A stretch of 64,000 bases of DNA from Nannocystis bainbridge (GCF_028368995.1 NZ_JAQNDL010000003.1:2080001-2144000), one strand, 5' to 3'. Numbered from the stretch's first letter, positions 4,464 through 63,296 are shown. The notes: generated by a model from the sequence alone, not told the origin. Translations and numbers: made by a program.

Positions 4464-4610
4464 CATGACTCTTGGAACATGTCCTTTCGGCAATGTCCGA
4501 ACCTGCCCGCCGCCGCCGCCTCACCGTCTACTAGAGCGCGGGCGACGTCCTGATGCTCCGCAGCTTCGGCGAAAACACGCTGGGACCATCGACCTGTCCC
4601 TCAGGACATC
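4464..4610. repeat. Cluster of C[AC]TGTC-N6-GACA[GT]G palindromes
   Basis: catgac-tcttgg-aacatg (4464), catgtc-ctttcg-gcaatg (4478), cctgtc-cctcag-gacatc (4593). Confidence 0.7.
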
Positions 4611-4617
4611 TCGACCC

Positions 4618-5589
4618 TCACTCCGTCTCTCCGCGCGCCGGCGCCGAGAAGCCCTCCCCCTTTTTAAAGGCTTTGCCGGCCGCGTAGGCCTGGGCGGGCA
4701 TGCGCTTGGCGCCGGCGGCCTGGACCTCGGCGACCAGCACCACCCCGTCGCCGCAGGCCACGTGCAGGCCCGCGCGGTCGACCGCCAGCACCTCGCCGGG
4801 CGCCGCGTCGTCGGGGCGAGCCAGCGGCGACGGCCGCGGGCGGTACAGCTTGACCGGTGTCCCCTCGCGCCCGGTCACTGCCGCCGGCCACGGGTCCATC
4901 CCCCGGATGTGATTCAGGACATGTCCTGAAGACCATGTCCAATCGACCACCCCTTCTTCTTTGCGCAAGATCGGCGCCAGCGTCACCAGCGTCGGGTCTT
5001 GCGGCGTCGGCGGCGGCACCTCCGGGAACTCGCCGAGGAACGCCGCCAGCAGATCGCCGCCGAGCGTCGCCAGGCGGAGGAACAGCTCGCCGCTCGTCTC
5101 CTCCGGCCCGATCGGCGTCTGCACCGCGCGGAACACCGGCCCCGTGTCGAGCCCCTCCTCCATCCTCATGATCGCCACCCCCGTCTCGCGGTCGCCTGCC
5201 AGCACCGCGCGCTGGATCGGCGCCGCCCCGCGCCAGCGCGGCAGCAGCGACGCGTGGACGTTGATGCAGCCGTGGCGCGGCACCTCGAGGATCGCGCGCG
5301 GCAAGATCCGCCCGTACGCCGTCACCACGATCACGTCGGGCTCCAGCGCTTGCAGCTGCGCCGCCAGCGTCCCGTCGCGCACCTTCACTGGTTGGCTGAC
5401 CGGCACCCCGAGGCGGAGCGCCGCCTCCTTGACCGCCGGCGGCATCAGCTTGCGACCGCGCCCCGCCGGCTTGTCCGGCTGCGTCACTGCCAGCACCAGC
5501 TCGCACGTGCGAGCGACCGCCTCCAGGCTCGACACCGCAAAGTCGGGCGAACCCATGAACACCGCACGAAGCCGCGAAGATCCGCTCAC
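4618..5589 (-). CDS. fmt: Methionyl-tRNA formyltransferase
   Basis: VFMGSPDFA, VTQPDKPAGRG, INVHASLLPRWRGAAPIQRA and EEGLDTG motifs. Confidence 0.96.
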   Translation of the reverse strand: MSGSSRLRAVFMGSPDFAVSSLEAVARTCELVLAVTQPDKPAGRGRKLMPPAVKEAALRLGVPVSQPVKVRDGTLAAQLQALEPDVIVVTAYGRILPRAILEVPRHGCINVHASLLPRWRGAAPIQRAVLAGDRETGVAIMRMEEGLDTGPVFRAVQTPIGPEETSGELFLRLATLGGDLLAAFLGEFPEVPPPTPQDPTLVTLAPILRKEEGVVDWTWSSGHVLNHIRGMDPWPAAVTGREGTPVKLYRPRPSPLARPDDAAPGEVLAVDRAGLHVACGDGVVLVAEVQAAGAKRMPAQAYAAGKAFKKGEGFSAPARGETE

Positions 5590-8500
5590 GTCGCCCCGAT
5601 CTGCGCCAGATAGGCGCTGTGCAGCGCGTCGTCGGAGAGCACGTCGCGCGCCTCGTCGAGGGCCGCCATCAGCTCCTCGATCTCCTCTGCCAGCTCGACC
5701 CGACTGTCGGGCTCGAGGCTCTCGCAGAACGTCGTCGTAAGGTCCGCGTGGGCCCGCAGCACCTCGGCCCGCGACGCCTCCCGCGGCAGCCCGAGCAGCG
5801 CGAAGTAGTCGCTCTCGCGCGCCAGTCGCAGGCGCTCGCGCACCCGCTGGCGGTCGAGCGCCGTCAAGCTCGCCGCCGGATCGTCGATCTCGGGCGCCAG
5901 GTGACCCAGCAGCTCGAGCACGTGCACGATCCCCCGGATCGTCGCCTCGTCGGCCACCGCGGCCGCGACCAACTCCGCCACCCGCGTCTGGCCGTCGAAC
6001 CGCTCCGTCACCGCCACCACCGCTGGCCAGCGCAGCTCCGCCGCCAGCGCCTCCGGCCCCGCGAACGCCAGCCGTGGCCGTCGATCATCATTCACCGCCA
6101 CGCGCAGCTGCGACAGCGTCGCCCCGCGCTGGACCCCGCCGGCGATCATCGCCGCCAGCGGCACCCCCAGCTCGACCGCCACCGCCGGCGTCTCGCCCGG
6201 ATCGAGGCCCCAGGCCACGCTGCCGCTCTCGGCGATCCGCTCGACGATCCGCCGCACCGGCTCCCGCAGCGCCTCCCGCATCTCCTGCGGTTTAATCAAT
6301 GCCGACTGCGCGAGTCGTTCGACGTCACGCCGCGGATCGCCGGTGCCCCAGCGCGCCGCCAGCTCCACGTGTGCCGGGCTGAGCAGCCCGCGCGCGGCCA
6401 GGCGGCCCAGCACCGACTCGCTGCTCGCATCGCTCGCGCCGCCGATGACCTGTCCCTCCGACCACCACAGCCGCCGCGCCGGCGCCCCGCTCGCTACCAC
6501 CCGCAGACAGCCCGTGAACCGCTCGCGCCGCAGCTCGGCCAGCAGCGCCGGAGCCTCCGTCTCACCGCGGCTCTCGGCCCCCGCCAGCGGCGACTCGGTC
6601 TCGGCATCCTCCGCCGCCGCGGGCCGAGCCTGCCGGACGACCTCGGCGATCGGCGAACGAGCGCGCTCCTGGCCACCTGACCCAAGAGACAGACCGGTTA
6701 CCCCGCGCCTCGCCGCCCGCGCGCGTTCATCGCTCCCGCGGACCTCGTGAACCGGCGCGCGATCACGTTCAGACTCGTCGGGAATGTCCCTTCGGGCATG
6801 TCGCTGAGGCCATGTCTCTCGAGACATCTCCGAGCCGACCTCGCCGCGCGGCGACGGACGCCGCGCCCAGTGGCGGGACGGCAACACGATCGTGGCTTCC
6901 TCGGCACCACGAGGGTCCTCACCGGCATCCGCGCTCGGTTCGTCCCTGTCAGCCCGCGTCACGACCGATCTGCGCGACGGGTCCCGCTCCTCGCGCGATT
7001 CCTCGTCCCCGAAGCGCCCCGCACCGCGCGCCTCGTCCCGGTCGCCTCGCGACGCGCCCGGCTCCCTACCGCCGCGCTCCGCGACCCTCCCGCCACCCGT
7101 GATTCGCGCCCGGGGCTCCACCCGGAACCTGCCCTCGCGGGCTTCGTCTCCGGACCGCCCCGACTCGCCGCCCTCACCGTCGGCCGCGAGCTCCGCAGCT
7201 TCGCCGGCATTCGCCTCCGACGACACATCGCCCGTCTCGAAGCGCTGGCTCCGCCCGGGACCTGTCCCTCGAGACAGGCGAACGTCCATCACCGCGAACC
7301 TGCCGCGCCGGCCCTCGAGCTCCGCGGCCTGACTCGCTCGCGTCGCGCCCGACGGCCCGGCGTCCTCCACCGCGAACCGTCCCCGATCCAGACCTGGGGC
7401 GAGCTTCGGCCGCGGCGGGGCCTTTTGCGGCTCCGCATCGACCTCGACCACGAACCGCCCGCGTCGCCTTTCGCTCGCGACCTCACCGCCGGAGCCCTCT
7501 CGCAACGAGCTCGCACCCTCGTGCCGCGGCCGCGCGCGGGGCAGTTCGGTCGTCCCCTCGCCCTCGATCGGGCCTGGCTCCGCGCCGACCCCGACGCCCG
7601 GCCGTTGGCTGCGATCCTCCTTCGGATCTTTCCCCGCGAGCTCGAAGGTCCGCGCCGTCGGCCGCTCACGCTTCAGCTCCACGGTCCGCTCGCGCCTCGG
7701 CTCGACTGTCGGCTCGCCGCGGACCGGAACTGTCCCTTCGGCCAGCCCATCCGCGCGCACCCGCGGCGCCCCGCGATTCGGACCTGCCTCTTCGGCCAGA
7801 TCCTTTGCGCCCCGCAGCCCCACGATCCGGCCTGTCTCTTCGGCCAGCTCGTCCTTCTGCCCCGGCCCCGATCGCGACCGCGCGCGCGGCTCGTCTCCCG
7901 CCGCAACCTGTCGTTTCGGCCATGTCCCTCGGGACAGCTCATTCCCCGCCCCCGCGCGCGGACCCGTCCGCCCCTCGTCCCCGCGGCTCGCCCGGTCCTT
8001 GCGAACGTCCTCACGGGCCGCGGTCGCCACGGACGCCGTATGGTCGCTGTGGGCCTCTGCGGGCCCCTGCGGGCCCGGCTCCGGCGAGATCTCCCCGTCG
8101 CGCGAAAACGTGAGCTCGCTTCGGGTCCCCCGACGACCGATCCGCGATTCGCCAGTCGAGGGCAACCGCTGGGTCGGCTCGCGCAGCAGCTCGAGCTCGC
8201 CGCTGTCGTGCTCCGGATCGACGTCGGGAACGGCGTCCAGGCCCATCGCCTCGAGGTCGATCCCGTCGCGGTGACCATCGACCGACTCTTCGCGGGTCTC
8301 GAGTCGCGCGGCCAGCACCTCGAGCGTGTGATGCAGGCGGCTGAGGACTGGGTCCGCGCGAACGGGGCGCGGAGCGGGTGAGGCCTCGCGAACCTCCGTG
8401 CGCACCGTCCCCGCTGGCGGACCCGCGAGCTCGACCAGCGCAGCCTTGAGCTCGGCCTCGTCGACGGGCGCTTCGAGGAAGCGGTCCGCTCCGAGCTCGA

Positions 8501-8777
8501 GCACGGCGGCCAGATCGGGCGTCTCGCCTTGCAGGCGCCCGTAGAGCAGCACCGGGATGCCCATCGTCTCCGGTCGCTGTCGCAGCGCCTGTACCAGACC
8601 GCTCGCATCCGTCGTGCCGAGGCAGACGATGACCGCCGCGGGGCCCGGGTTTTGCGCCGCACGCGGCACCAGCTCGCGCTCGCGAACCGGCACCACCGTG
8701 TAGCCCAGGTCCTGCACGCGAGGGACCAGCTCGCCCCGGTGGGCACGGTCACCCGTCATGAGGATCTCCGGACCCAC
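5586..8777 (-). CDS. Multidomain protein: receiver-like N-terminus, long charged linker, DUF4388-like region, C-terminal J-like domain
   Basis: IPVLLYG...LELGADRFLEAPVDEAELKAAL (receiver fold); RERFTGCLRV; DYFALLGLPREASRAEVLRAH...EARDVLSDDALHSAY (J-like); stop overlaps the fmt start. Confidence 0.7.
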   Translation of the reverse strand: MGPEILMTGDRAHRGELVPRVQDLGYTVVPVRERELVPRAAQNPGPAAVIVCLGTTDASGLVQALRQRPETMGIPVLLYGRLQGETPDLAAVLELGADRFLEAPVDEAELKAALVELAGPPAGTVRTEVREASPAPRPVRADPVLSRLHHTLEVLAARLETREESVDGHRDGIDLEAMGLDAVPDVDPEHDSGELELLREPTQRLPSTGESRIGRRGTRSELTFSRDGEISPEPGPQGPAEAHSDHTASVATAAREDVRKDRASRGDEGRTGPRAGAGNELSRGTWPKRQVAAGDEPRARSRSGPGQKDELAEETGRIVGLRGAKDLAEEAGPNRGAPRVRADGLAEGTVPVRGEPTVEPRRERTVELKRERPTARTFELAGKDPKEDRSQRPGVGVGAEPGPIEGEGTTELPRARPRHEGASSLREGSGGEVASERRRGRFVVEVDAEPQKAPPRPKLAPGLDRGRFAVEDAGPSGATRASQAAELEGRRGRFAVMDVRLSRGTGPGRSQRFETGDVSSEANAGEAAELAADGEGGESGRSGDEAREGRFRVEPRARITGGGRVAERGGREPGASRGDRDEARGAGRFGDEESREERDPSRRSVVTRADRDEPSADAGEDPRGAEEATIVLPSRHWARRPSPRGEVGSEMSRETWPQRHARRDIPDESERDRAPVHEVRGSDERARAARRGVTGLSLGSGGQERARSPIAEVVRQARPAAAEDAETESPLAGAESRGETEAPALLAELRRERFTGCLRVVASGAPARRLWWSEGQVIGGASDASSESVLGRLAARGLLSPAHVELAARWGTGDPRRDVERLAQSALIKPQEMREALREPVRRIVERIAESGSVAWGLDPGETPAVAVELGVPLAAMIAGGVQRGATLSQLRVAVNDDRRPRLAFAGPEALAAELRWPAVVAVTERFDGQTRVAELVAAAVADEATIRGIVHVLELLGHLAPEIDDPAASLTALDRQRVRERLRLARESDYFALLGLPREASRAEVLRAHADLTTTFCESLEPDSRVELAEEIEELMAALDEARDVLSDDALHSAYLAQIGAT

Positions 8778-8937
8778 GGCGACGGGAGTGTACTCCAGTC
8801 CTTATGCGCGGCGACGCACCCTCGCAGCTGGCGGTCCGGGGCGGCCTTTTCTTCCAGGATGCGTGAAGCGGCGCGCCCAGCGAGCGTCTGCCCGCTGTCA
8901 CCTTCCCGCAACCGCTCAAATCAGCCAGGATCTCCCC

Positions 8938-9408: not shown

Positions 9409-9496
9409 AACCCTCTTGGGGTCCGCACTGCCGGTCGCCCCTCGCGCCTGAGGCCGCCATACGCGGCCTTTGTCGCGACGGGCCGCGGCCCCTACC

Positions 9497-10195: not shown

Positions 10196-10226
10196 GCCGG
10201 CGCATCACCCCTGAAGCGGCGACCCC

Positions 10227-10256
10227 GGAGCCTGTCTCTTTGGACAGGCTCCTTTT
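10227..10256 (+). terminator. Rho-independent terminator after the hydrolase gene
   Basis: GGAGCCTGTC-TCTTTG-GACAGGCTCC followed by TTTT. Confidence 0.75.
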
Positions 10257-10262
10257 CATCGT

Positions 10263-12818
10263 TCACAGCAGCGACTGCGGATCGACATCCACGTTCGCCA
10301 TCGTCTTGAATTCCCCGCTGCCTGCGTCGCCGAGCCGCGGTCGCAGCTGCCGCAGCAACCACCGCAGCGGCGGTCGGCTGCTCGCGCGGACCAGCATCTG
10401 CCAGCGCACCCGCCGGTTCACTCGCTCGATCAGCGACGCCTTCGGCCCGAGCAGCTGCAGGGGTGGCAGCGCCTCGGCGGCCCCGGGCTCCTCCGCGTGC
10501 TTGCGCCGCACCTCTTCCGCCGCCGCGCGAATCACCACCGCCAGCTCCTCCGCGCGCCGCTGCACCGCCACCTGATCCGGCCCGGAGATCCGCACCAGCG
10601 CCAGGTGGCCGAACGGCGGGTTGTGGAGCTCGCGCCGCTTGTCGAGCTCCCACGCCGCGAACGCCTCGAAGTCGTGCTGCGCCGCGAACGCGATCGCCGG
10701 GTTGTTGATCCCGTACGCCTGGATCAGCACTCGACCCGACCTGTCCCCGCGGCCAGCTCGGCCTGCCACCTGCGTCAACAGCTGGAACGTTCGCTCCGAC
10801 GCGCGGATGTCCGGCAACCCGAGCCCGTGATCGCCCTGGAGGATCCCCACCAGCGTCACCCCGGGGAAGTCGTGCCCCTTCGAGAGCATCTGCGTCCCCA
10901 CCAGGATGTCCGCCTCGCGGCGACGAAACGCCGACAGCGTCTCGAGCAGGCCCTTGCCCCGACTCGTGTCGCGATCGAGCCGCAGCACCCGCGCCCCCGG
11001 CACGTCCTTCGCCAGCGCCAGCTCGATGCGCTCCGTCCCCGCGTTGCCGTGCAGCAGCTCGCCCTCGCCACAATCCATGCAGCGCTCCGGCGGCGCCTCG
11101 ATGTACCCGCACCAGTGACACATCAAGCGATTGCGCCCGAGGTGATACGTCATCGCCGGCGCGCTGCAGTCGGGGCAGTGATGCAGCGCCCCGCAGCGGT
11201 CGCAGATCAGCGTGGTCGCGAAGCCGCGGCGGTTGAGGAACACGATCGCCTGCTCGCCCGCCGCCACCGTCTCCACCAGCGCCGTGCGCATGCGGCCCGT
11301 CAGCAGCGTCTCCGGGTCGGGACGGTGCACCGCCAGCGACAGCAGCTCCACCTCCGGCAGCGGTCGCGTCGTCGGCCGCGTCGTCATCCGCAGCCACCGG
11401 ATCTTGCCTGCCCGCGCCGACTCGTACGTCTCGAGCGCCGGCGTCGCGCTGCCCAACACGGCCACCGCCGACGCGTCGCGCGCCCGCACCAGCGCCACGT
11501 CGCGCGCGCTGTAGCGGACCCCTTCCTCTTGCTTGAACGACCCGTCGTGCTCCTCGTCGACCACGATCACCCGCAGGTCGGGCACCGGCGCGAACACGGC
11601 CGAGCGGGCCCCGATCACGATCGGCCGCGCGCCCATGCGGATCTGCTGCCACGCGTCCAGGCGCTGACGCGGCGTCAGCCCGCTGTGCAGCACCGCCACC
11701 GTCTCGCCGAAGCGCGCCCGGAACCGGTCCGAGAGCTGCGGCGTCAGGGCGATCTCCGGCACCAGCACGATCGCCCCGCCTCCGCGCGCCCGCGCGTCCG
11801 CGATCAGCTGCAAGTACACCTCCGTCTTGCCGCTGCCAGTCACCCCGTGCAGCAGCGACGCCGCGAACTTGCCCCCCTCGAGGTCCGCGCGCAACGTCGC
11901 CAGCGCCGCCGCCTGGTCGGCCGTCGGCGTCTGCGGCAGCGTCGGCTCGATCGTCCCCGCCGCGAACGGATCCAGCGCCCGCAGCCGCTCCTCGACCGCC
12001 ACCAGCCCCGCCGCGAGCAGCGGCTCCAGCAGCTTCTTGTGGCCCGGGAACGGCCCGCGCAGCTCCCCCGCCGCCACCCACGAACCTGCCCCTTCGAGCA
12101 GGTCGAGCAGCGCCCGTCGCTGCTTGCTGCGACCGATGTGCTCGCGCAGCGTCTCCTCCGCGGTGGCCGCTCCCCGCAAGTAATCCGTGCGGCGGTAGTG
12201 CGCCTCGACGCGCGCCCCCTCGCCGCCGGCGTCCTCCCAGGAGATCGTGCACAGCTCTTTGACCGCGAGGTCGCCGATGAGGCGCAGCACCCCGGGGATC
12301 CGCGGCCGCAGGTCGATGAGCCGCTCGACCGCGAGCTCGCCCCCCGGCGCCGACGCCAGCGCTGCCAGCACCCGCTGCTCCGCCGCCGTCGGCAGCCCCG
12401 TGTCGTCGATCGGCTGCAGCACCACCTCACGCGCGGCCGCCAGCGCCTGCGCACCTGCCTCCGACAACATGACCCTTCGGACGTCATGCCCCGTCAGCAG
12501 ACCCGGCAGCGCCAGGCGATAGACCTCGCCCACCGGCGCCACATAGTAGTCGGCCACCCACTCGCAGAGGCGCGCCAGCTCGAGCGTCAACGACGGCGCG
12601 CCCGGCGGATCGAGCACCTCCTCGAGCAACTTGATGCGCGCCCCGTCCAGCCGCTCCGGCGCCGCCGCGCGCACCACTCCGACCAGCCCGCGGTTGGCGA
12701 ACGGCACCAATACGCGCGCCCCCGGCTCCGGCGCGCTCGGCCACGACGTCGGCACCGCGTACGTGAACCCGCGGTCGAGCGCCACCGGCAGGGCCACCGA
12801 GACCAGCCGCTCGCTCAC
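10263..12818 (-). CDS. priA: Primosomal protein N' (replication restart helicase)
   Basis: GTG at 12818; HGVTGSGKTEVY, DEEHD, Cys-rich zinc region, GTQMLSKGHDFP, QVAGRAGR, DVDPQSLL. Confidence 0.96.
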   Translation of the reverse strand: MSERLVSVALPVALDRGFTYAVPTSWPSAPEPGARVLVPFANRGLVGVVRAAAPERLDGARIKLLEEVLDPPGAPSLTLELARLCEWVADYYVAPVGEVYRLALPGLLTGHDVRRVMLSEAGAQALAAAREVVLQPIDDTGLPTAAEQRVLAALASAPGGELAVERLIDLRPRIPGVLRLIGDLAVKELCTISWEDAGGEGARVEAHYRRTDYLRGAATAEETLREHIGRSKQRRALLDLLEGAGSWVAAGELRGPFPGHKKLLEPLLAAGLVAVEERLRALDPFAAGTIEPTLPQTPTADQAAALATLRADLEGGKFAASLLHGVTGSGKTEVYLQLIADARARGGGAIVLVPEIALTPQLSDRFRARFGETVAVLHSGLTPRQRLDAWQQIRMGARPIVIGARSAVFAPVPDLRVIVVDEEHDGSFKQEEGVRYSARDVALVRARDASAVAVLGSATPALETYESARAGKIRWLRMTTRPTTRPLPEVELLSLAVHRPDPETLLTGRMRTALVETVAAGEQAIVFLNRRGFATTLICDRCGALHHCPDCSAPAMTYHLGRNRLMCHWCGYIEAPPERCMDCGEGELLHGNAGTERIELALAKDVPGARVLRLDRDTSRGKGLLETLSAFRRREADILVGTQMLSKGHDFPGVTLVGILQGDHGLGLPDIRASERTFQLLTQVAGRAGRGDRSGRVLIQAYGINNPAIAFAAQHDFEAFAAWELDKRRELHNPPFGHLALVRISGPDQVAVQRRAEELAVVIRAAAEEVRRKHAEEPGAAEALPPLQLLGPKASLIERVNRRVRWQMLVRASSRPPLRWLLRQLRPRLGDAGSGEFKTMANVDVDPQSLL

Positions 12819-13417
12819 CGCGAACCCTCCTCCGCCTCGCGCCGCGTCTGATACAGCGCCCGTCGCAGCGCCCCGCGCATCAGCGCCAGCTCGAGCACCG
12901 CCGCCACCAGCATCACCCCGCCGGCCGCCAGAAGCACCCGCCGCGACCACTCCACCCACAGCACCAGCAGGCCCGCCTCACCGGCCGCGACCCCGCGCGC
13001 CGCCCCGGCGATCACCCCGCGCACGGCCAGCGCCAGCGCGACCACCACCGCCGCGCCGATCACCGCCGTCACGACGCCGATGCGCACCGCGCCCACGCGA
13101 CCGAGCCGCGAGCGATCGCCCTCGACCCAGCCGAGCGAACCACTCGCCGCCGCGGCCACCAGCGCCGTCACGACCGGCACGCCCACGAACATCGGCCATG
13201 TCCCGAAGAACATGTCCAAAAGACCATGCGCGCTCTCGCCCGACCACGCCGCCCGCAACACCGAAGCCAGCGAGGCATCGAGGTGATGCGGGAGCGCGGC
13301 CGCCAGCGTCAGGCACAGCAGCGCCGGCACGAGACGCGAGGACCTCGGCCGCAGACCGACCCGCCAGGCCAGCGCGACGCGAGCGCGGCTCGGCGGGGTG
13401 GTGGCGTCGAGGTCCAC
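12815..13417 (-). CDS. Degenerate FlhB/SctU-like protein, membrane domain only
   Basis: N-terminal TTPPSRARVALAWRVGLRPRSSRL resembles FlhB TExPTxxRLxxARxxGxVxxSxEL; four hydrophobic segments; C-terminal LELALMRGALRRALYQTRREAEE resembles D..QR...L.MTK.EVK.E; ends before the NPTH domain. Confidence 0.6.
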   Translation of the reverse strand: MDLDATTPPSRARVALAWRVGLRPRSSRLVPALLCLTLAAALPHHLDASLASVLRAAWSGESAHGLLDMFFGTWPMFVGVPVVTALVAAAASGSLGWVEGDRSRLGRVGAVRIGVVTAVIGAAVVVALALAVRGVIAGAARGVAAGEAGLLVLWVEWSRRVLLAAGGVMLVAAVLELALMRGALRRALYQTRREAEEGSR

Positions 13418-18332: not shown

Positions 18333-19775
18333 TCAGTCGCCGAGCCCGATCCGGCCGATCATCTGCAAGCGGCGCGGCGAGGCGCTGTCGAGCTCGACGA
18401 CGCCGATCGTGCTGGCGAGCGTGTGCACGACGTACAGCTTGCGCCGCGCCTCGTCGACGACCAGCTCGTTGGGCCCGTCGTCGACCGGGATGGTGCCGAT
18501 CACGGTGAACGAGCCGAGCGCGACGGCGGCGATCTCGTCATCGGAGTAACAGCTGACGAACGCGATCGCCTCGGCCTGCTTCGGCCGGTGGACCGCCAGG
18601 ATGTTCGGGTTGTGACACAGCGCGACGCTGTCGATCGGATCGTTGAGCGGCTCGCCCGAGGGGCCGAGGCTGGTATCGACCAGCGACAGCGACGGCGGCG
18701 TGGTGTGGACCGCGAGCAGGCGATCGCCGACCTCCGGATCGATGAACTCGATCTCGCCCATGTACGGGCGGTCGCCGGCGGCGTACGGGTCGGCGACCGG
18801 CAACCAGTGACTGGCGAACCGCACCAGCGTGTCGCGCCCGGTCTCGACGCTGAACAGACGCACGCCGGGCCAGAAGCGGTGCGAGGCGTACAGCAGCGGG
18901 CGCGTGCAACTCTCGGTGCGAGGCGGCGCGTCGGTCGGGTCGCAGGCGCGCTGGGCGACCGCGAAGCCGCCGGCGAGCACGCCCTTGCCGCCCGGCTCGG
19001 GCGCGAAGAAGGCGGCGTTGGGGTCGGTGATGTCGGTGATCTTCGGCCCGTACTCGGCGTCGAGGGCGATGAGGCTCATGCGCGCGCCGAGCAGGTGCGG
19101 CAAGTAGGCGAAGCGATAGCCCTCGCTGTCGACGAAGATCCGCGCCGGGTCGGACGGCAGGCGCGCGCCCGCCGGGTCGTTGCCGAGCCGCTGCAGCGAG
19201 TGCGCCGCGTCGCACTCACCCTCGGCGTCCTGCCCGCACTCGACCTTGATGCCGCCGGCCTCGCGCACGACGTCGATCCACGTCACCGCTCGCTCTTCGA
19301 GGCTCGACGGCACCAGCAGCCGCCACGGGCCGTCGTCGCCGATCGGCCGGTCGAGGGCGATGTTGCCGGCGCCGCTGGTGAACCGGACCGAGTGCGCGCG
19401 CTGGATGAAGTAGCGCTCCTCGCACTCGACGATCTCCTGGTCCTTCGCACCTGTCCCTTCGGACATGGCCTGGGCGACACGACAGGGCGCGGCGGCGCTG
19501 AGCTCGGCGTCGGCCGGCGCGGGCGGCTCGGCGAACGCCTGGTCGAGCGCGCGCAGGTTGAGCACCACGAGGGTGCTCGACTTGACCGCGAGGTCGAGGT
19601 TGCTGTTGGTGACGAACAACCACGCGCCGTCGGGCGACAGCAAGGCGCCGGTCGGCAGCCGCAGCGCCTGCAGGTCGGCCGGCTCGGGCTCGCCGCGCCC
19701 GCAGGTCGCCAGCAGCAGCATCGCGGCGCACCAGCGGTGAGAGACGCGCGGCATTCGACGAGAGGACGGTATCAC
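18333..19775 (-). CDS. Lipoprotein with YncE-like beta-propeller
   Basis: Lipobox LLATC; LSPDGAWLFVTNSN and GPNELVVDEARRKLYVVH blades; start may be ATG 19754. Confidence 0.7.
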   Translation of the reverse strand: MIPSSRRMPRVSHRWCAAMLLLATCGRGEPEPADLQALRLPTGALLSPDGAWLFVTNSNLDLAVKSSTLVVLNLRALDQAFAEPPAPADAELSAAAPCRVAQAMSEGTGAKDQEIVECEERYFIQRAHSVRFTSGAGNIALDRPIGDDGPWRLLVPSSLEERAVTWIDVVREAGGIKVECGQDAEGECDAAHSLQRLGNDPAGARLPSDPARIFVDSEGYRFAYLPHLLGARMSLIALDAEYGPKITDITDPNAAFFAPEPGGKGVLAGGFAVAQRACDPTDAPPRTESCTRPLLYASHRFWPGVRLFSVETGRDTLVRFASHWLPVADPYAAGDRPYMGEIEFIDPEVGDRLLAVHTTPPSLSLVDTSLGPSGEPLNDPIDSVALCHNPNILAVHRPKQAEAIAFVSCYSDDEIAAVALGSFTVIGTIPVDDGPNELVVDEARRKLYVVHTLASTIGVVELDSASPRRLQMIGRIGLGD

Positions 19776-19778
19776 GCC

Positions 19779-20474
19779 TCAGACCCGCGCGAGGGCCTGC
19801 AGCCACGCGTCCGGGTGCACGGCCCAGGCCGCGGCGAGGGCGGTGAGTGCGGCGACGGCGACGAGCCACGGCCGGCTCGCGGCCGCCAGCGCGGCCATGG
19901 GTCCAGGCCTCGCGGCGCACGCGAGCGCGAGCTCGACGACGGCGGCGGTGAGCAGCACGGGCGTGGCAAGACCGAGCGCGAGCACGGTGGCGTCGTGGGC
20001 CGCCGCGCTCACCGCCGCGAGGTCGAGCTGCAACGGCCACGCGCCGGGCTCGCCCACCGGCCAGCGCGTCGCGCACGCGCGCAAGCCGGTCAACAGCGGC
20101 CGATGCAGCCCGGTCGCCAGCGCGAGCGAACCGACCAGCGCCACGTGCAGGGCCGCGAACGCGCGCGCCCCTGCGAGCCCGAGCGCGACCCCCGAGCGGC
20201 GAGCCGCCCCGAGCGCCGCGTCGCCCGGCAAGCTGACGAGCGCCCCGAGCACGGCGCCGAGCAACAGCTCGAAGCCGGCCGCCAGCAGCCACGATGTCCA
20301 CGCCACCGGCGCCAGGCGGATCGGGGCCCACGCGGCCGCCAGGATCGCCGCCAGCCCCGCCGCGATCGCCCACCACATCCCGCCCGCGGCCGCGCGCCAC
20401 AGCGTCTGGGCCTGCAAGACGGCGAACAGACGCAGCGCCAGCCAGGCCCACGCGGCCAGCGGCCCCGCGATCAT
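19779..20474 (-). CDS. FliR/SctT-like export gate membrane protein (degenerate)
   Basis: Very hydrophobic; ELLLGAVLG, TGLHRPLLTGL, LGLATPVLL...VELALACAAR match the FliR pattern; follows fliP/fliQ-like genes. Confidence 0.7.
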   Translation of the reverse strand: MIAGPLAAWAWLALRLFAVLQAQTLWRAAAGGMWWAIAAGLAAILAAAWAPIRLAPVAWTSWLLAAGFELLLGAVLGALVSLPGDAALGAARRSGVALGLAGARAFAALHVALVGSLALATGLHRPLLTGLRACATRWPVGEPGAWPLQLDLAAVSAAAHDATVLALGLATPVLLTAAVVELALACAARPGPMAALAAASRPWLVAVAALTALAAAWAVHPDAWLQALARV

Positions 20475-20496
20475 CGCCGGCCCCGGCCGTGAATCA

Positions 20497-20558
20497 CATG
20501 TCCTCCGGGACAGCCTGTTCGCGCTCTCGCACGAAAATAACATGTCCTCGAGGACAGC
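20497..20558. repeat. Two copies of the 18-bp palindrome in the fliQ-fliR gap
   Basis: catgtc-ctccgg-gacagc (20497) and catgtc-ctcgag-gacagc (20541). Confidence 0.8.
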
Positions 20559-20828
20559 TCATCGCCCGCGCCCGATCTCGGGCAGCAGCGCCCACAGCCC
20601 GCGCGTGTACGTGGTCCCGTCGGCCAGCCATCCCGCGCCGAACCACCACACCACCGCCAGCACCGCCGTCGCACGGGCCAGCAGCACCGGCGCCGGATCG
20701 GTGACGCCGAGGCGGTGGCACAGCCAGCCGATCACCAGCGCCGCCCCGGCCGCGGCCCCGGCCGCAGGTGCGAGCAGCCACGCCGTCTGGACCAGCCCGT
20801 CGCGCATCGCGTCGAGCGCCGGGGTCAC
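20559..20828 (-). CDS. FliQ/SctS-like export gate protein (degenerate)
   Basis: 89 aa, two hydrophobic helices, LVIGWL...GVTDP...WFGAGWL; GTG overlaps the fliP-like stop. Confidence 0.65.
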   Translation of the reverse strand: MTPALDAMRDGLVQTAWLLAPAAGAAAGAALVIGWLCHRLGVTDPAPVLLARATAVLAVVWWFGAGWLADGTTYTRGLWALLPEIGRGR

Positions 20829-35474: not shown

Positions 35475-36674
<1,200 letters not shown>

Positions 36675-51029: not shown

Positions 51030-51149
51030 TGTGTCTTGCCTTTCCGGGGTCCAGGCGGCCTGTTCGGCCTCCCCCGGGGTTGTCCCCGGCCGCGATGGGC
51101 CGGGGCTCCTGCCCGCATGTCCTCAGGGGCAGGAAGGAATTCTCGACGC

Positions 51150-52747: not shown

Positions 52748-52820
52748 CAGGGGGTGGGGGACTCGAACCCTCGGCCTGCGGATTTGGAGTCCGCTGCTCT
52801 ACCAACTGAGCTAACCCCCT
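52748..52820 (-). tRNA. tRNA-Trp (CCA)
   Basis: AGGGGGT acceptor stem, GCGGA-CT-CCA-AA-TCCGC anticodon arm, TTCGAGT loop; 3' CCA not encoded. Confidence 0.95.
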
Positions 52821-52837
52821 GTAAGAACCCACTTAAC

Positions 52838-52999
52838 CTACTTGGTCTCCTTGTGATCCGCCTGCTTCCGGCAGTGACGGCAGAACTTCTTGAGGACGAG
52901 CTTCTCGGGCGTCGTCCTCTTGTTCTTGGTCGAGGAGTAGTTGCGCCGCTTGCAGGTCTGGCACTCGAGCTGGATGATGATGCGGTTGCCGGCAGCCAT
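52838..52999 (-). CDS. rpmG: 50S ribosomal protein L33 (zinc-binding type)
   Basis: Manual translation: [53 protein letters not shown]. Confidence 0.96.
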
Positions 53000-53146
53000 A
53001 GGAGCCTCAACAGGCGAAGGGGTCCCGTTCTAGCAAGACCCGTTCCGGTTGACAAGTTCGAGCCCGGGACCGACAGATGCCGGCAAACCGGGGAGTTAGG
53101 GCAAAACAAGGCGGGGGTCACGCCCCCCGCCTCGCCATCTCGAGGT

Positions 53147-54346
<1,200 letters not shown>

Positions 54347-54399
54347 GGCTGTGCTTCTCTGGGGGTGACGGGTTCAGTCGTCGAGAGGGATTCTCTGGG

Positions 54400-54472
54400 A
54401 GCCCATGAGCGGATTCGAACCGCTGACCTCATCCTTACCAAGGATGTGCTCTACCAACTGAGCTACATGGGC
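54400..54472 (-). tRNA. tRNA-Thr (GGT)
   Basis: GCCCATG acceptor, ATCC-TT-GGT-AA-GGAT anticodon arm. Confidence 0.95.
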
Positions 54473-54509
54473 ATAATTGTCAGGATTCACTTGCGCGGGT
54501 TGCGCAGAG

Positions 54510-54582
54510 AGCGGGAGACGAGGGTCGAACTCGCGACATTCAGCTTGGAAGGCTGACGCTCTACCAACTGAGCTACTCCCGC
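54510..54582 (-). tRNA. tRNA-Gly (TCC)
   Basis: GCGGGAG acceptor, CAGC-CT-TCC-AA-GCTG anticodon arm. Confidence 0.95.
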
Positions 54583-54591
54583 GGTAGGCAG

Positions 54592-54676
54592 TGGATGGGG
54601 AAGGATTCGAACCTTCGAAGCGCGGTGCGCGGCAGATTTACAGTCTGCTCCCTTTGGCCGACTCGGGCACCCATCC
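54592..54676 (-). tRNA. tRNA-Tyr (GTA)
   Basis: GGATGGG acceptor, GCAGA-CT-GTA-AA-TCTGC, long variable arm. Confidence 0.95.
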
Positions 54677-54731
54677 TCGTGATCTTGAAACAGTCGCTGC
54701 GCGCGTGGCCCGGAGGGCCGTTCGGTTGGAG

Positions 54732-54804
54732 AGCTGACGATGGGACTCGAACCCGCAGCCGCCTGATTACAAATCAGGTGCTCTACCAATTGAGCTACGC
54801 CAGC
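54732..54804 (-). tRNA. tRNA-Thr (TGT)
   Basis: GCTGGCG acceptor, CCTGA-TT-TGT-AA-TCAGG anticodon arm. Confidence 0.95.
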
Positions 54805-59392: not shown

Positions 59393-59423
59393 GGTGTGCC
59401 TGCGAAGTCGGGGAATTGAAACG

Positions 59424-59798
59424 TCAGCGAGGACGCGGTTGCCGGAGGACGTTGCCGGGCAGCGGGACGTCCATCTCGACGGCGCCCTTGAACTGCGCGC
59501 CGTCGGCGATCTCGACGCGCGGGGCGCGAAGGTTGCCGACCACGCGGGCGCCCTCGCGGAGGGTGATGCCCTCGGCGGCGACGACGTCACCCTCGACCTG
59601 GCCGTGGATCTCGACGCTGTCGGCCTCGATGTCGGCAGCGACCATCGCCGGCCCGGCGATGAGGAGGTGCGCGGACAAGGCGATGCTGCCCTCCACCCTG
59701 CCCTGCACTACGACGTCTTCCTCGCCGACGAGAGACCCGCGGACGGTGATCCGTGGGCCGATGACACAGGGTGCTTCGTGGACGGCAGATCCAGCCAT
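59424..59798 (-). CDS. Bactofilin (BacN-like)
   Basis: ATG 59798; VIGPRITVRGSLVG...GAQFKGAVEM. Confidence 0.9.
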   Translation of the reverse strand: MAGSAVHEAPCVIGPRITVRGSLVGEEDVVVQGRVEGSIALSAHLLIAGPAMVAADIEADSVEIHGQVEGDVVAAEGITLREGARVVGNLRAPRVEIADGAQFKGAVEMDVPLPGNVLRQPRPR

Positions 59799-59985
59799 GA
59801 GCGTTACGCCGGCGAAGAGTAACGGCGGGTCTGCGCCGCGGTCAAGCGCAGGTGACGGTCGGGGCCGGCGCCGCGGCGCCTGTGGGCCGATCGCACGCGG
59901 CGGCGGCCTGCAATTCGCTGTCAAGTCGCGCCAAACGCCACGTACACTGACTCCCCGCCAGACCTGGCGACGACCCGGAGCCTCC

Positions 59986-61392
59986 GTGAGCAGCACCCCC
60001 GAGACCCCCGCCTCCAGCGCGCCGCTGCAGCCCGAAGACCTCACGGGGTTCTTCCGCCGCGCCGAACGCCCCGACCGCCGGACCCACAAGATCGGCACCG
60101 AACACGAAAAGTTCGGCGTGTTCGTCGCCGACGGCGAGTACCGCCCGGTCGAGTACGAGGCCCACGTCCTGGCGGTCATGAATAGCTTCATGGAGCGGTT
60201 CGGCTGGCAGCCGGGCGGCGAACGCGGCAACGACGGGGCGCTCATCAGCCTCGTACGCGACGGCGCCTCGATCACGCTCGAGCCGGGCGGCCAGTTCGAG
60301 CTCAGCGGCGCACCCCTGGCCGACGTCCACCTCACCTGCCAGGAGTTCACGCAGCACCAGCGCGAGCTTCACGCGGTGTCGCAGGAGCTGGGGATCGCCT
60401 GGATGGCGTCGGGCTTCCATCCGTTCGCCACCCGCGAAGAGATCCACTGGATGCCCAAGCCGCGCTACGCGGTGATGCGGGCCTACTTGCCGACCGTCGG
60501 CCAGCGCGGCATCGACATGATGCTGCGCACGTGCACGGTGCAGGCCAACTTCGACTTCGCGTCGGAGGAGCAAGCCGGGACCCGGCTGCGCCTGGCGATG
60601 GGGGTGTCGGCGCTGACGACGGCGCTGTTCGCCAACTCCCCTTATAAGGAGGGCGAGGACCGCGGGTTCGCGTCGCTGCGCAGCGACAACTGGACCGACG
60701 TCGACGCCGCCCGCTGCGGGCTGCTGCCGCTGGCGTTCGAGGCGCCGTTCTCGTACGAGCGCTACGCCGCGTGGGCGCTGGCGGTGCCGATGTTCTTCAT
60801 CCGGCGCCAGGGCCGCTACATCCCGCTGCACGTGCCGTTCCGCGAGTACATGGCGACCGGCTACGTCGACCCGGACGGGGTCCGCCACACGGCGACGCTG
60901 GGCGACTGGGAGCTGCACCTCAGCACGCTGTTCCCGGAGATCCGCCTGAAGCCGTACCTCGAGGTCCGCGGCTGTGATTCGGTGCAGCAGAACATCCTCT
61001 GCGCGCTGCCGGCGCTGTGGAAGGGGCTGCTCTACGACGACGACGCCGGCGAGGCAGCGTGGGAGCTGGTGGCCGACCTCGACTTCGGCGAGCGGCTGAC
61101 GCTGTGGTCCGAGTGTCGCCAGGCGGCCCTGGCGTCGCCGCGCGTCCGCGCGCTGTGCCAGCGCCTGCTCACCATCGCGCGCGAGGGGCTCGACCGCGCC
61201 GACATCCGCGACCGTCGCGGCCGCACGGAGGCGTTCTTCCTCGACCCGCTCGAGGCGCTGGTCGCCGCCGGCACGTCGGCCGCCGACGTCGCGCGAGCCA
61301 AGATCGGCCCCCACCCCGGCCGCGACGTGGCGGCCCGCCGCGCGTTCGTCCGCGCGTTCCACTTCGCCGGCGCCGGGCTCGAAGAGGGCTGA
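59986..61392 (+). CDS. gshA: Glutamate--cysteine ligase (plant/alphaproteobacterial GCS2 type)
   Basis: IGTEHEKF, LEPGGQFELSG, MPKPRY, TCTVQANFD, LFANSP, LFPEIRLKPYLEVRG. Confidence 0.92.
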   Translation: MSSTPETPASSAPLQPEDLTGFFRRAERPDRRTHKIGTEHEKFGVFVADGEYRPVEYEAHVLAVMNSFMERFGWQPGGERGNDGALISLVRDGASITLEPGGQFELSGAPLADVHLTCQEFTQHQRELHAVSQELGIAWMASGFHPFATREEIHWMPKPRYAVMRAYLPTVGQRGIDMMLRTCTVQANFDFASEEQAGTRLRLAMGVSALTTALFANSPYKEGEDRGFASLRSDNWTDVDAARCGLLPLAFEAPFSYERYAAWALAVPMFFIRRQGRYIPLHVPFREYMATGYVDPDGVRHTATLGDWELHLSTLFPEIRLKPYLEVRGCDSVQQNILCALPALWKGLLYDDDAGEAAWELVADLDFGERLTLWSECRQAALASPRVRALCQRLLTIAREGLDRADIRDRRGRTEAFFLDPLEALVAAGTSAADVARAKIGPHPGRDVAARRAFVRAFHFAGAGLEEG

Positions 61393-61461
61393 CCTCTCGG
61401 GCATGTTCTCGAGGGCATGTCCGAGAGGGCATGTCCGCAGGAACATGACCTAACAAGCAGG
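61388..61461. repeat. Five overlapping copies of the 18-bp palindrome at 14-bp period
   Basis: gctgac-ctctcg-ggCATGtt-ctcgag-ggCATGtc-cgagag-ggCATGtc-cgcagg-aaCATGac-ctaaca-agcagg. Confidence 0.85.
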
Positions 61462-61541
61462 AGCCGCGCGGGCGAGGAAGCGGACGCTCGCGCCTCCGGT
61501 CAAACAGGGCGCGGCGCGAGGACATGTCCCTCGCGCCGGCC

Positions 61542-63296
61542 TCACTCGTCGTCGTCGCGCAGGTAGGACGGCAGGTCCTCGATCAGCTCGACGCGGCTCA
61601 GCTCCTGGATGTCGTCGTCGACCGGCGGGGGCGGCGGAGGCTTGCGCGCCGGCGGGGGCGGCGGCTTGCGCGGGTTCGGCGGCTTGGGGCTCGGGCCGCG
61701 CGGGCCGACCGCGGCCGCGCCGGAGCCGGCGCGCGGCTTGCCGACCGGGGCGCCGAGCTCGACGACCTTCTTCTTGGGAGTGCGGTGGCGCAGGACCGGG
61801 GCGCCGCTTTCGGCGTCGACGTCGATCGCCGGCAGGCCGGGCATCGGCGGGGTGTCGCGGGTGCGCGCCGGTTGGGCGACCGGCTCGTCGTCGTCGTCGT
61901 CGAAGCCGTGCGCCGGCGGCAGGTTGGGCGCGTCGTCGTCGTCGTCGAGCAGCGCGCCGCGCACGTCCTCCATCGACGAGCGACGCACCGGGGCCTGCGA
62001 GCGCGTCGGCGGCGGCGACTCATCGTCGTCGTCGTCGTGCAGCACGCCGCGTACGTCGTCGATCGACGAGCGACGCACGGGCGCCTGCGAGCGCGGCGGC
62101 GGTGACTCGTCGTCATCGTCGTCGTGCAGCGCGTGGCGCTCGTCTTCCATGGACGGACGGCGCACCGGCGCCTGCGGCGAGCGCATCGGCGGCGGCGCGT
62201 CGTCGTCGTCGTCCAGCACCCTGCGCACGTCGTCGATCGACGAGCGGCGCACCGGCGGCGAGACGGGCCGGCGCGCGTCCTCGACCGCGGCGCGATGCAC
62301 CGGCCGGATGTCTTCGCGGCGCGGATCCTCGGGCGCCGCGTGGCGCACCGGCGGCGCGTCGTCGTCGTCGATCAGGACGCCGCGCGCGTCGTCCAGCGAG
62401 GCCCGCCGCGCCGGCGCGTCGTCGCGGCGGCGCAGGTCGTCGAACGCGGCGCGCCGGACCGGCCCAGCGTCCTCGAACATGCCGCCGCGACCGAGGTCGA
62501 GCGGCGGATCGTCGTCGCGCGGCTCGTCGTCGTCACTCAGGGTGGGCAGCGGCAGGTCGTCGTCGTCGTCCTGGATCGGCATCCGGACGTCGTCGTCGTC
62601 GTCGATGAAGCCCGACGCGTGCGCGCTGGTGTGCGAGGACACCGTCGGCGCGCGCGGTTCGTCGCGGTCGTACCGCATGCTGGGGTAGAACAGGTCGCTG
62701 ACGCCCGAGCCCTCGCTCGCGTCCTCGTCGGGGATCCCCAGCACCAGGGCCGCCGACTCTTCGCTGCTGATGCCGAGCGCCGCGGCCAGCGGCAAGGTCG
62801 CCGAGAGGTCGGCCGGCGGCGAGTGGTTCGACGACGAGTAGTCGCTCTCGCGCTGGGCCGCGAGCGCGAAGCTCCGCAACAGCGTCGGACGCGGCTCCTC
62901 CGCGGCCGGCTCCTGCTGGCGGTACGGGTACGGGCGGCTGAGCTTGAGCATCGACTGGAAGCGGGCGAACCCGCCGAGCCCGGAGTCGGGGTCGTCGTCG
63001 ATCACCGGGGCCGACGGCTGCGACGAGGTCGCCGCCGTGACCGCCTGGCGCAGGTCGGCCGGGATGTCGCCGTCGAGCTCGTCGAACTCGGTGCGGAAGT
63101 CGTCGCTGTCGCGGCGGACCGGCGCGCTGTCCCTCGAGACATGTCCCGAAGGACCGCCGAGGAGCTCGCCCAGCGTCGAGTCAGGGTCGAGGCCCTGGAG
63201 CAGCACGTTGGCCCGCGCGCGCGCCCACGCGAGCAAGGCCGGCACTTCCCTGGGGCCGTAGCCTTCGCGCGCGAGCAGGTCGTCGGGCTGCGGCAT
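61542..63296 (-). CDS. Acidic, Pro-rich low-complexity hypothetical protein with internal repeats
   Basis: ATG 39 bp after the alaS stop; repeated PVRRSS[IM][DE]DVRxxLxDDDDD units. Confidence 0.75.
   Translation of the reverse strand: MPQPDDLLAREGYGPREVPALLAWARARANVLLQGLDPDSTLGELLGGPSGHVSRDSAPVRRDSDDFRTEFDELDGDIPADLRQAVTAATSSQPSAPVIDDDPDSGLGGFARFQSMLKLSRPYPYRQQEPAAEEPRPTLLRSFALAAQRESDYSSSNHSPPADLSATLPLAAALGISSEESAALVLGIPDEDASEGSGVSDLFYPSMRYDRDEPRAPTVSSHTSAHASGFIDDDDDVRMPIQDDDDDLPLPTLSDDDEPRDDDPPLDLGRGGMFEDAGPVRRAAFDDLRRRDDAPARRASLDDARGVLIDDDDAPPVRHAAPEDPRREDIRPVHRAAVEDARRPVSPPVRRSSIDDVRRVLDDDDDAPPPMRSPQAPVRRPSMEDERHALHDDDDDESPPPRSQAPVRRSSIDDVRGVLHDDDDDESPPPTRSQAPVRRSSMEDVRGALLDDDDDAPNLPPAHGFDDDDDEPVAQPARTRDTPPMPGLPAIDVDAESGAPVLRHRTPKKKVVELGAPVGKPRAGSGAAAVGPRGPSPKPPNPRKPPPPPARKPPPPPPVDDDIQELSRVELIEDLPSYLRDDDE

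Follow-up and report, generated by a model that had tools for sequence, protein, structure and literature searches.

Dispersed words specific to one clade, such as REP, HIP1 and DUS, are common, and for most of them the reader protein and the purpose are unsettled. The DNA uptake sequence (DUS) of Neisseria and the uptake signal sequence (USS) of Pasteurellaceae are clade-specific words present at about 0.5 per kb; they are asymmetric, are enriched as single copies, and sit in coding DNA at low-cost positions as well as behind genes as inverted repeats. HIP1 (GCGATCGC) is, in the parts of the literature available to us, over-represented 15- to 300-fold, conserved and methylated, and is reported to raise transformation efficiency (PMC5861425, 10.1101/2024.09.10.611283, PMC13756078). 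Repetitive extragenic palindromes (REPs) are described, in the accessible part of a survey, as imperfect palindromes of 20-40 bp with a GTAG or CGTC tag at one end, hence oriented, which are found chiefly behind coding regions, where the neighbouring open reading frames (ORFs) are unidirectional or convergent, with some inside genes (PMC3733652). Here we analyse a stretch of 64,000 nucleotides from Nannocystis bainbridge (GCF_028368995.1, NZ_JAQNDL010000003.1:2080001-2144000; hereafter the window), in which a previous reading of the sequence alone had noticed a dispersed 18-bp palindrome, C[AC]TGTC-N6-GACA[GT]G, and we follow this element through the whole genome and its relatives. Its core is a dyad, TGTCC-N4-GGACA. 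We establish how it is built, how far it exceeds chance, where it is placed, which clade carries it, and that its arms are conserved around a free spacer. Our preferred reading, held with slightly more doubt than belief, is that the unit is a site in duplex DNA read by a putative dimeric sequence-specific protein of the genus and REP-like in its placement; both the binding and the duplex form are what we infer from sequence.

The likeness to REPs and to bacterial interspersed mosaic elements (BIMEs) covers a short clade-specific palindrome that has hundreds to thousands of copies and frequently forms evenly spaced clusters (so described in the accessible parts of PMC3733652 and PMC2817692), a position mostly downstream of genes and occasionally within them, and the behaviour of motif-bearing spacers as hot spots of length change. 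The Nannocystis unit differs from REPs, as that literature presents them, in being a symmetric 5-4-5 dyad with neither a GTAG/CGTC tag nor an orientation, in its free centre, fixed arms and 14-bp abutment, in the share of near-consensus copies that lie in genes (about 44%), without indels where examined (fmt), in the failure to find a gene for a REP-associated tyrosine transposase (RAYT) in the genome, and in being free of any strand asymmetry suggestive of an RNA function. With HIP1 it shares the character of a lineage-wide, hyper-abundant palindromic word spread over genes and spacers, conserved more than neutral evolution would predict and long obscure in function, together with an in-gene excess over a codon-level null and conserved arms, both quantified below; HIP1, however, is in the same available sources an uninterrupted 8-mer tied to methyltransferases, whereas the Nannocystis word is bipartite, with a free 4-bp centre, phased arrays and a strong preference for gene 3′ ends. 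With DUS and USS it has in common that the word is clade-specific, stands at about 0.5 per kb and occurs in coding DNA where the cost is low as well as behind genes as an inverted repeat; it differs from them in that only the paired form is enriched. We found no description of a TGTCC-N4-GGACA repeat in the literature searched (supplements and subscription journals being outside its scope), the main text of the REP survey (PMC3733652, supplementary tables outside scope) has no term beginning with Myxococc and no Nannocystis, Sorangium or Deltaproteobacteria, and an Rfam search of the window gave only five tRNAs. Of the three outcomes that would have refuted the earlier reading (no enrichment over a codon-level null, no preference for the N6 spacer, a match to a described family), none occurred, the last within the sources just named. 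It is a new repeat of a kind already known, the clade-specific dispersed palindromic repeats.

A dyad of fixed spacing and its phased arrays

The genome (11.05 Mb in five contigs, 71-72% G+C; called G000 here, with the window at C2:2080001-2144000) contains 3,663 copies of TGTC-N6-GACA, and every other spacing from 0 to 30 gives 29 to 189 copies, save a spacing of 20 (6+14) with 984; at the codon-phase-matched spacings 0, 3, 9 and 12 the counts are 79, 66, 48 and 63. The logo of these 3,663 copies is symmetric, (G)AC[A/C]TGTCC-N4-GGACA[T/G]GT(C), and refines the core to TGTCC-N4-GGACA with CA/TG extensions, the long form being the 18-bp CATGTCC-N4-GGACATG. The exact core is present 1,987 times against 0-16 for spacers of 0-3 and 5-9, and with at most one mismatch 6,245 times against 101-330 at the same other spacers. 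A de novo scan of all pairs of a 5-mer and its reverse complement (k of 0-12) returned the TGTCC-N4-GGACA family as the only outlier beyond codon periodicity, while a ranking of 8-mers under a maximal-order Markov model gave no information, the motif raising the counts of its own sub-words. The half-site TGTCC occurs 23,769 times against 14,333 expected, an excess of about 9,400, and 8,232 of its copies have a partner arm at N4 (at most one mismatch), so the half-site excess is nearly all in the paired form.

The signal is far stronger genome-wide than in the window, where TGTC-Nk-GACA is found nine times at k = 6 against 0-4 times at each other k from 0 to 20. The 18-bp palindrome as first written occurs there exactly three times (7261, 10231 and 19450) against 0.06 expected from 100 shuffles, and 20 first-order Markov simulations gave a mean of 0.70 sites at one mismatch (14 observed) and of 8.5 at two (27 observed); at three mismatches the 79 observed sites against 78.8 simulated are at chance level. 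The sequence-only reading had counted about 40 degenerate copies with a fixed 6-bp spacer as a candidate chromosome-wide code: the spacer and the genome-wide dyad are borne out, and about 35 copies exceed chance, a number close to the one first given. When 37 start positions of its list were checked, with ranges expanded in 14-bp steps, 3 had no mismatch, 13 had one, 14 had two, five had three (7729, 12085, 12468, 61388 and 61444) and two had four (4934 and 6449); the last seven are at chance level alone and count only through their 14-bp phase with neighbours. Its crowding of copies in 4.4-21.7 kb and their scarcity in the ribosomal/RNA polymerase block are likewise real: of the 44 window matches with at most two mismatches, 28 fall between 4.4 and 21.7 kb and 7 between 22 and 55 kb, with 8 more past 55 kb and a single one at 665.

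Units are chained at a constant step. In the genome GACA-N0-TGTC occurs 2,237 times, with 1,305 at N14 and 645 at N28, and 10-mers resembling GGACATGTCC (at most two mismatches) succeed one another at a step of 14 bp 2,655 times, against 3-21 times at steps 11-13 and 15-17, in agreement with the chaining through a shared CATG first noticed in the window; the step is 14 because neighbouring 18-bp sites overlap by CATG. The longest arrays are of eight units, abutting head to tail at exactly 14 bp, and one of six units lies at C1:2214415. Since 923 of the 956 exact GGACATGTCC 10-mers are accompanied at N4 by a partner arm to one side or both (33 are not), the unit is the dyad across the 4-bp centre and the 10-mer is the junction between units. 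The spacers of adjacent units are independent (matches to the reverse complement average 1.153, and 1.118 ± 0.044 after shuffling), and whole arrays as one long hairpin were rejected, adjacent spacers not being complementary. A small excess of identical spacers in adjacent units (19 observed, 5.9 expected) is a trace of recent slippage. Two young tandem arrays, both between convergent genes, show growth by slippage and a sub-variant of the junction: C3:1085854-1085951 consists of seven nearly identical 14-bp units (CTGAGGTCATGYCC), and C3:1054304-1054417 consists of eight units of a GGACAGGYCC variant with CAGG, not CATG, at the junction.

Arms, strands and gene ends

A palindrome of this kind might act as a REP-like hairpin, that is, as an RNA or single-stranded-DNA stem-loop at transcript 3′ ends serving as a terminator or mRNA stabiliser, its arms then reflecting common descent or recognition of the hairpin. 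We think this unlikely, yet it has points in its favour. The placement is that of published REPs (in the accessible part of PMC3733652), units lie close to stop codons, and covariation across the spacer is weak but real. Two stable folds are found in the window, one at 10222-10262 (-21.2 kcal/mol, z -5.7), with a terminator-like site at 10227-10252, and one at 61396-61452, a long plus-strand hairpin (-33.6 kcal/mol, z -5.3) over an array whose minus strand folds more weakly (-21.9 kcal/mol, z -3.2); two window units coincide with sites of a hairpin plus T run. Against it, the folds of single units at 20491-20520 (z -0.6) and 4900-4945 (z -0.3) do not surpass those of shuffled sequence, and the loop length is strictly 4. 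In the strand test, the 1,718 units of tandem intergenic regions were oriented to the transcript, and their spacers are without strand bias (CGAA 88 and TTCG 80; CTCG 80 and CGAG 68). Nor did these oriented units show a T-rich tail, the share of T at positions +19 to +22 being 0.14-0.29 and not exceeding that upstream; a hairpin with T run, as expected of an intrinsic terminator, is not general, and in the window only the two units just mentioned coincide with terminator-like sites. The lack of complementarity between adjacent spacers, the in-gene copies without indels, the absence of the GTAG/CGTC tag and the failure to find a Y1 transposase gene in G000 also speak against a hairpin.

The arms themselves point the same way. 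When each arm pair was examined with the other four held exact, using net counts of single and double mutants, pair 2 (G..C) was found to be all but invariant; conservation is strong at pairs 1 and 4 and loose at pairs 3 and 5. For pair 2 the net counts are 10 and 4 single mutants against 1,979 consensus copies, with no compensated double; for pair 3, independence predicts 139 net Watson-Crick doubles and 143 are seen, and G..C at this pair is rarer than so predicted. Positions 1 and 4 of the spacer have mirror-image compositions (C/T and G/A), yet they pair less often than expected (584 observed, 661 expected). Strict spacing, an invariant arm pair without compensation, a symmetric but unpaired spacer, strand symmetry, conserved arms and a neutral centre favour recognition of the duplex by a dimer, and the unit thus behaves like the site for a dimeric protein that had been proposed from the window.

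The placement of units at gene 3′ ends is their main regularity, and it had been overlooked. The earlier statement that copies are written over genes and intergenic DNA is right in that both hold copies, and misleading as to their spread: 2,170 of the 3,663 copies of TGTC-N6-GACA lie within the 14% of the genome left intergenic by our own gene caller, which is based on G+C at third codon positions (GC3) and gave 8,377 genes (86% coding). Per kb of intergenic DNA, units number 5.48 between convergent genes, 2.06 between tandem and 0.68 between divergent genes, and at least one unit is present in 693 of 1,416 convergent regions (49%), 935 of 4,512 tandem regions (21%) and 212 of 1,427 divergent regions (15%). 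In tandem regions 1,238 units are closer to the upstream stop, against 476 closer to the next start. Arrays of at least four 10-mers are found 127 times in intergenic DNA, 12 times in coding sequences (CDSs) and 29 times at gene edges. By our arithmetic the preference for intergenic DNA is about 14-fold.

This bias to gene 3′ ends suggests a connection with the ends of transcription units rather than with chromosome-scale organisation, and it bears on the role in nucleoid occlusion or segregation that the sequence-only reading had inferred. A many-copy dyad tolerated in genes is what sites of a nucleoid-occlusion, macrodomain or segregation protein (of the Noc, SlmA, MatP, RacA or ParB type) could look like; the density, however, is close to 56 units per 100 kb on each of the five contigs (100-kb counts of 10-108) and does not change at the GC-skew switches on C3 (~1.5 Mb) and C1 (~4.4 Mb), where the bins are ordinary. 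To our knowledge, none of these systems has a bias to gene 3′ ends and their consensuses are unlike TGTCC-N4-GGACA. With no regional pattern and a strong 3′-end bias, such a role is very improbable. What the density does track is GC3 (Spearman 0.61 over 100-kb bins), compositionally atypical DNA being poor in units. Three stretches in 100-kb bins have only 10-17 units (C1 1.1-1.3 Mb, C2 1.8-1.9 Mb and C5 0.4-0.5 Mb); their GC3 is lower (0.85-0.91), GC skew is weaker in those on C1 and C2, and they are candidates for recently acquired DNA.

Copies inside genes are far more numerous than codon usage would produce. Exact copies in CDSs number 858 against 29-33 in four synonymous-codon shuffles, and copies of TGTC-N6-GACA number 1,446 against 104-120, an enrichment over the codon-preserving null that the earlier reading had anticipated. 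Near-consensus units in gene calls (2,770 of the 6,245) are distributed along the length of the genes; 1,641 of them have both flanks codon-periodic in the frame of the gene, and the three reading frames are used 1,307, 1,111 and 352 times, the two cheapest being favoured. The double unit of fmt illustrates how such copies are accommodated: it shows no indel against 13 orthologues, lies in the variable peptide WTWSSGHVLNH and is spelled by seven A/T-ending codons (GAT, ACA, TCT, TCA, GGA, CAT and AAT) in a gene with a GC3 of 0.91, as had been noticed for copies within unrelated CDSs.

Clade limits, evolution and candidate readers

The long form CATGTCC-N4-GGACATG is present in 369 copies in G000 and is carried by all 11 genomes of the genus as defined by GTDB, with 180-266 copies in five other large assemblies and 2-50 in fragmented ones. 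Sampling of the family gave 1-6 copies per genome in two sister genera and no copy in 22 genomes from 14 further genera; elsewhere in the phylum, 80 genomes yielded one copy in all. In 200 kb of a sister-genus genome (G028) there are 5 core units; 200 kb of a more distant genus (G009) has no core unit, and de novo scanning revealed no palindrome family peculiar to it and no outlier beyond codon periodicity. The idea that other genera have a counterpart palindrome of another sequence was rejected on these scans, G028 having shown the same motif. The extended form ACATGTCC-N4-GGACATGT, searched in one genome per prokaryote species, occurs in at least 91 stretches, and among the 80 listed 62 are from Nannocystis or Nannocystaceae and 18 from other taxa.

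The evolution of the units was followed in three 20-kb regions of G000 and five relatives (G031, G032, G033, G034 and G036) syntenic with it at 88-91% identity; the units were ascertained in G000, and the relatives are not independent of one another. In CDSs, with 77 of 100 comparisons aligned, identity is 0.897 in the arms (691/770), 0.809 in the flanks (2,453/3,034) and 0.753 in the spacer (232/308). In intergenic DNA (73 of 165 comparisons aligned) the corresponding values are 0.774, 0.684 and 0.479, the alignments there being possibly seeded by the motif, which would inflate the arm value. The arms are better conserved than the flanks and the spacer drifts freely: in 111 orthologous unit pairs the spacer is the same in 32, different in 79 and reverse-complemented in none, and inversion of the spacer (flip-flop) was rejected on this count. 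Relatives differ at units by point substitutions, with gains and losses. When intergenic regions were compared, presence of a unit in G000 was matched by presence in the relative 45 times out of 56 and absence by absence 93 times out of 97, and all seven convergent spacers of the compared regions carry units in G000. Among the six genomes the length of motif-bearing intergenic regions ranges from 65 to 2,576 bp, and most motif-free ones stay within about 10 bp, a few varying widely (for instance 126-796 bp at C3:1052733).

This length range, the large number of copies and the recent tandem copies with identical spacers (19 against 5.9 expected) could be accounted for by a miniature mobile element, either a MITE (a miniature transposable element with inverted repeats) or a REPIN moved by a RAYT, inserting its own copies. 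We give very little credence to this idea. Intragenic copies replace sequence without indels (fmt against its orthologues), a 14-bp unit cannot insert in frame, and the spacer differs from copy to copy, so the copies are not derived from one master sequence. The Y1 transposase domain (PF01797) has no match in G000 (marker completeness 90.5%), in a search that matched 6 of 14 control genomes, and a RAYT/IS200 source was rejected on this ground. A census of 25-mers in G000 turned up only six blocks of at least 400 bp in at least four copies, and four of these blocks are no more than about 20 kb from a contig end; with almost no long multi-copy repeats, a high-copy insertion sequence or MITE was rejected as a source. 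Two of the places where such long sequences lie near contig ends are C1:4515674-4536530 and C2:3026590-3033751, and the assembly probably breaks at these repeats.

A further possibility is a self-marking word of the DUS/USS, Chi or HIP1 type, read by a clade protein of uptake, recombination, repair or methylation and written by biased uptake or conversion wherever the cost is low. Its limitation to the clade with retention by 11 of 11 genus genomes, its even density along contigs and scarcity where GC3 is atypical, the use in genes of the two cheapest frames and of synonymous choice, the preference for faster-evolving segments (flanks at 0.809 against 88-91% for the syntenic regions), the gains and losses by point substitution and, in the sources available to us, the precedent of the over-represented, conserved and methylated HIP1 (PMC5861425, 10.1101/2024.09.10.611283, PMC13756078) are all consistent with it. 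The half-site alone, however, is hardly enriched, whereas known uptake words work singly, and the 14-fold intergenic preference and the phased arrays would need a further explanation, which leaves this reading improbable, if worth keeping in mind.

Two families of regulators were considered as readers of the dyad. The canonical PadR operator is, in the accessible part of its description, ATGT/ACAT with a spacer of about 8-10 nt (PMC3506622), an inverted repeat contained in the 18-bp form as ATGT-N8-ACAT (cATGTcc-N4-ggACATg). The exact 20-bp ACATGTCC-N4-GGACATGT adjoins genes for a PadR-family regulator and a dehydrogenase in seven of seven actinobacterial loci inspected, and with the operator core this indicates that a winged-helix dimer can read such a geometry in duplex DNA, a point in favour of the preferred reading. 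In Kribbella, Nocardia and Amycolatopsis the palindrome separates the PadR gene from one for a short-chain dehydrogenase; usually there are two copies, some 31 bp from each other, and it looks like a conserved PadR operator pair of an actinobacterial regulon. The Nannocystis sites differ in numbering thousands and in being poorest in divergent, promoter-bearing spacers. PadR as the binder was rejected, and it serves as an analogue only: G000 has no PF03551 match and no match to a hidden Markov model of seven PadR proteins in 103,554 six-frame ORFs, none was found in G032, and the other four relatives have 1-2 PadR genes each (family-wide, a sparse 15 of 31 genomes have a match), the six PadR genes of relatives having no unit upstream. 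The site of the MrpC type, which we take to be GTGTC-N8-GACAC, was also rejected, TGTC-N8-GACA not being enriched (29 copies) and no match being found in the literature searched. Small genes with a unit upstream, drawn up as candidates for DNA-binding proteins, number 144.

Sites in the window and what the repeat may mean

The sites of the window are collected in Table 1, together with their state in the five relatives and with the actinobacterial palindromes.

Table 1. Units and arrays in the window, with the PadR-adjacent palindromes of actinobacteria in the last row (mismatches as counted against the 18-bp palindrome)
Position	Site	Mismatches	Setting	Relatives and further remarks
4464-4495	two chained degenerate units	2 each	convergent intergenic region 4326-4617	orthologous region holds 1-6 units in 5 relatives despite a length range of 246-1175 bp
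4593-4610	single unit cctgtccCTCAggacatc	1	few bases past the stop of fmt (4618-5562, minus strand)	G033 (spacer cgcg), G034 (ttca) and G036 (cgcg) have a unit at the aligned position
4906-4937	two chained units		within fmt (methionyl-tRNA formyltransferase; Pfam Formyl_trans_N and Formyl_trans_C)	4920 unit kept in G032, G033 and G036; G031 and G034 keep only the next, more degenerate unit, TGTCC-aatc-GACCA
6783-6828	three-unit array, 14-bp steps		in doubtful 1063-aa ORF (5586-8777, minus strand)	kept in G031 and G036 with other spacers; flanks no longer align
7261-7278	exact unit cctgtccCTCGagacagg	0		no relative aligned here
7907-7938	two chained units	1 each		kept in G034, degenerate in G031
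10231-10248	exact unit at the tip of a hairpin with 11-bp stem, then TTTT	0	convergent intergenic region 10196-10262	
12454-12485	degenerate double unit	2 and 3	within priA (identified by Pfam PriA domains), just after the 3′ DNA-binding domain	kept in 5/5 relatives
13197-13228	two chained units	1 and 2	5′ part of 200-aa ORF (12815-13417, minus strand)	13211 unit kept in G031-G034; 13197 unit closer to consensus in G000 than in relatives
19450-19481	exact unit and degenerate neighbour		inside 473-aa ORF (18333-19754, minus strand)	unit with 0-2 mismatches at the place of 19450 in 5/5 relatives
20497-20514	unit		upstream of gene 19779-20474 (minus strand), ~25 nt from its start	arms identical in 6/6 genomes; spacers all differ (tccg, gcga, ctgg, ctgc, tcgc, ccgc)
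20541-20558	unit		directly past the stop codon of gene 20559-20828 (minus strand)	in 6/6 genomes; intergenic region of 73-268 bp among them; terminator-like site, T-rich tail on minus strand
26445-26462	single copy	1	in 438-aa ORF of the ribosomal-protein block	
51116-51133	single copy	1	intergenic 51030-51149 between two small ORFs, ribosomal block	
61402-61447	three-unit array	2, 1 and 1	~10 nt past the stop of a GCS2-family gene (59986-61392, plus strand), convergent intergenic region	
61520-61529	exact GGACATGTCC flanked by gcgcga / tcgcgc (offset one base)		~12 nt past the stop of gene 61542-63296 (minus strand)	10-mer without N4 partner, a rare form genome-wide (33 of 956)
63126-63157	two chained units	1 and 2	5′ part of 584-aa ORF (61542-63296, minus strand)	no Pfam match for the ORF
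L012:1011-1061, L022:6735-6785, L037:1008-1058, L038:2684-2734, L017:6261-6310, L048:6421-6469, L051:6222-6271	PadR-adjacent palindromes		seven actinobacterial loci	

The 1063-aa ORF at 5586-8777 has a GC3 of only 0.85 and no Pfam match, and its middle (about 6604-7908) is unalignable to relatives that are otherwise 88-91% identical, with the motif arrays there kept; this ORF model is doubtful and may stand for two genes with a repeat-rich spacer. In the ribosomal/RNA polymerase block two ORFs of equal size, 399 aa, lie on the minus strand at 35475-36674 and 53147-54346, one of them following a tRNA cluster (52748-54804); they are presumably duplicated elongation-factor genes.

Several of our own results weigh against a duplex site for a dimeric protein. 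The arms covary to some extent: at pair 1 the Watson-Crick doubles number 76 where 6 were expected, and in intergenic DNA the odds ratio is 2.4 for TGCCC..GGGCA and, as computed from the counts, about 3.3 for flank offset 1. A hairpin, or templated correction from arm to arm, would give such covariation. The two window units at hairpin-plus-T-run sites count on the same side, as do those copies that are good hairpins directly after stop codons. The dependence of the placement on our own gene caller, the relatedness of the five relatives, the possible seeding of intergenic alignments and the PadR results (no gene found in G000 or G032, no unit upstream of the genes of relatives) have to be added. 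Finally, the roughly 850 exact copies in genes fit the role of a roadblock badly, unless single units are weak.

If the dyad is nevertheless read in duplex form, the putative dimers would line up side by side on the 14-bp phased arrays of 2-8 units, and the binder may polymerise, as the sequence-only reading suggested and as the arrays would allow. Arrays, most of them right behind stop codons and especially where genes converge, would in the most plausible case serve as two-way boundaries of gene ends, presumably either as a roadblock to read-through or as a docking site for proteins that handle supercoils, as has been proposed for REP/BIME. Point substitutions and the choice among synonymous codons would place single units in those stretches of coding sequence that are under weak constraint, and slippage would lengthen and shorten the arrays. 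A more specific version, which we put forward as a speculation and believe to be rather unlikely, is a punctuation of gene ends in which an abundant putative dimer on phased dyads would form a two-way roadblock or topological insulator in place of intrinsic terminators, weak single sites being written into hundreds of CDSs. Were it true, it would be a bacterial counterpart of protein-mediated termination of the mTERF or Reb1 type.

Among dispersed clade-specific words TGTCC-N4-GGACA is unusually clean, with a huge signal-to-noise ratio, an exact array step and a clear placement at gene ends, and, traces in two sister genera apart, it is limited to a single genus of myxobacteria that have large genomes and are rich in natural products. 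The clean dyad, the exact step, the clear placement and the limitation to one genus should make the putative binder easy to fish out, and the role of such words directly testable. For these genomes the motif tells native from atypical DNA and flags gene ends for annotation, and it may matter in the design of constructs for the hard-to-engineer bacteria of the genus.

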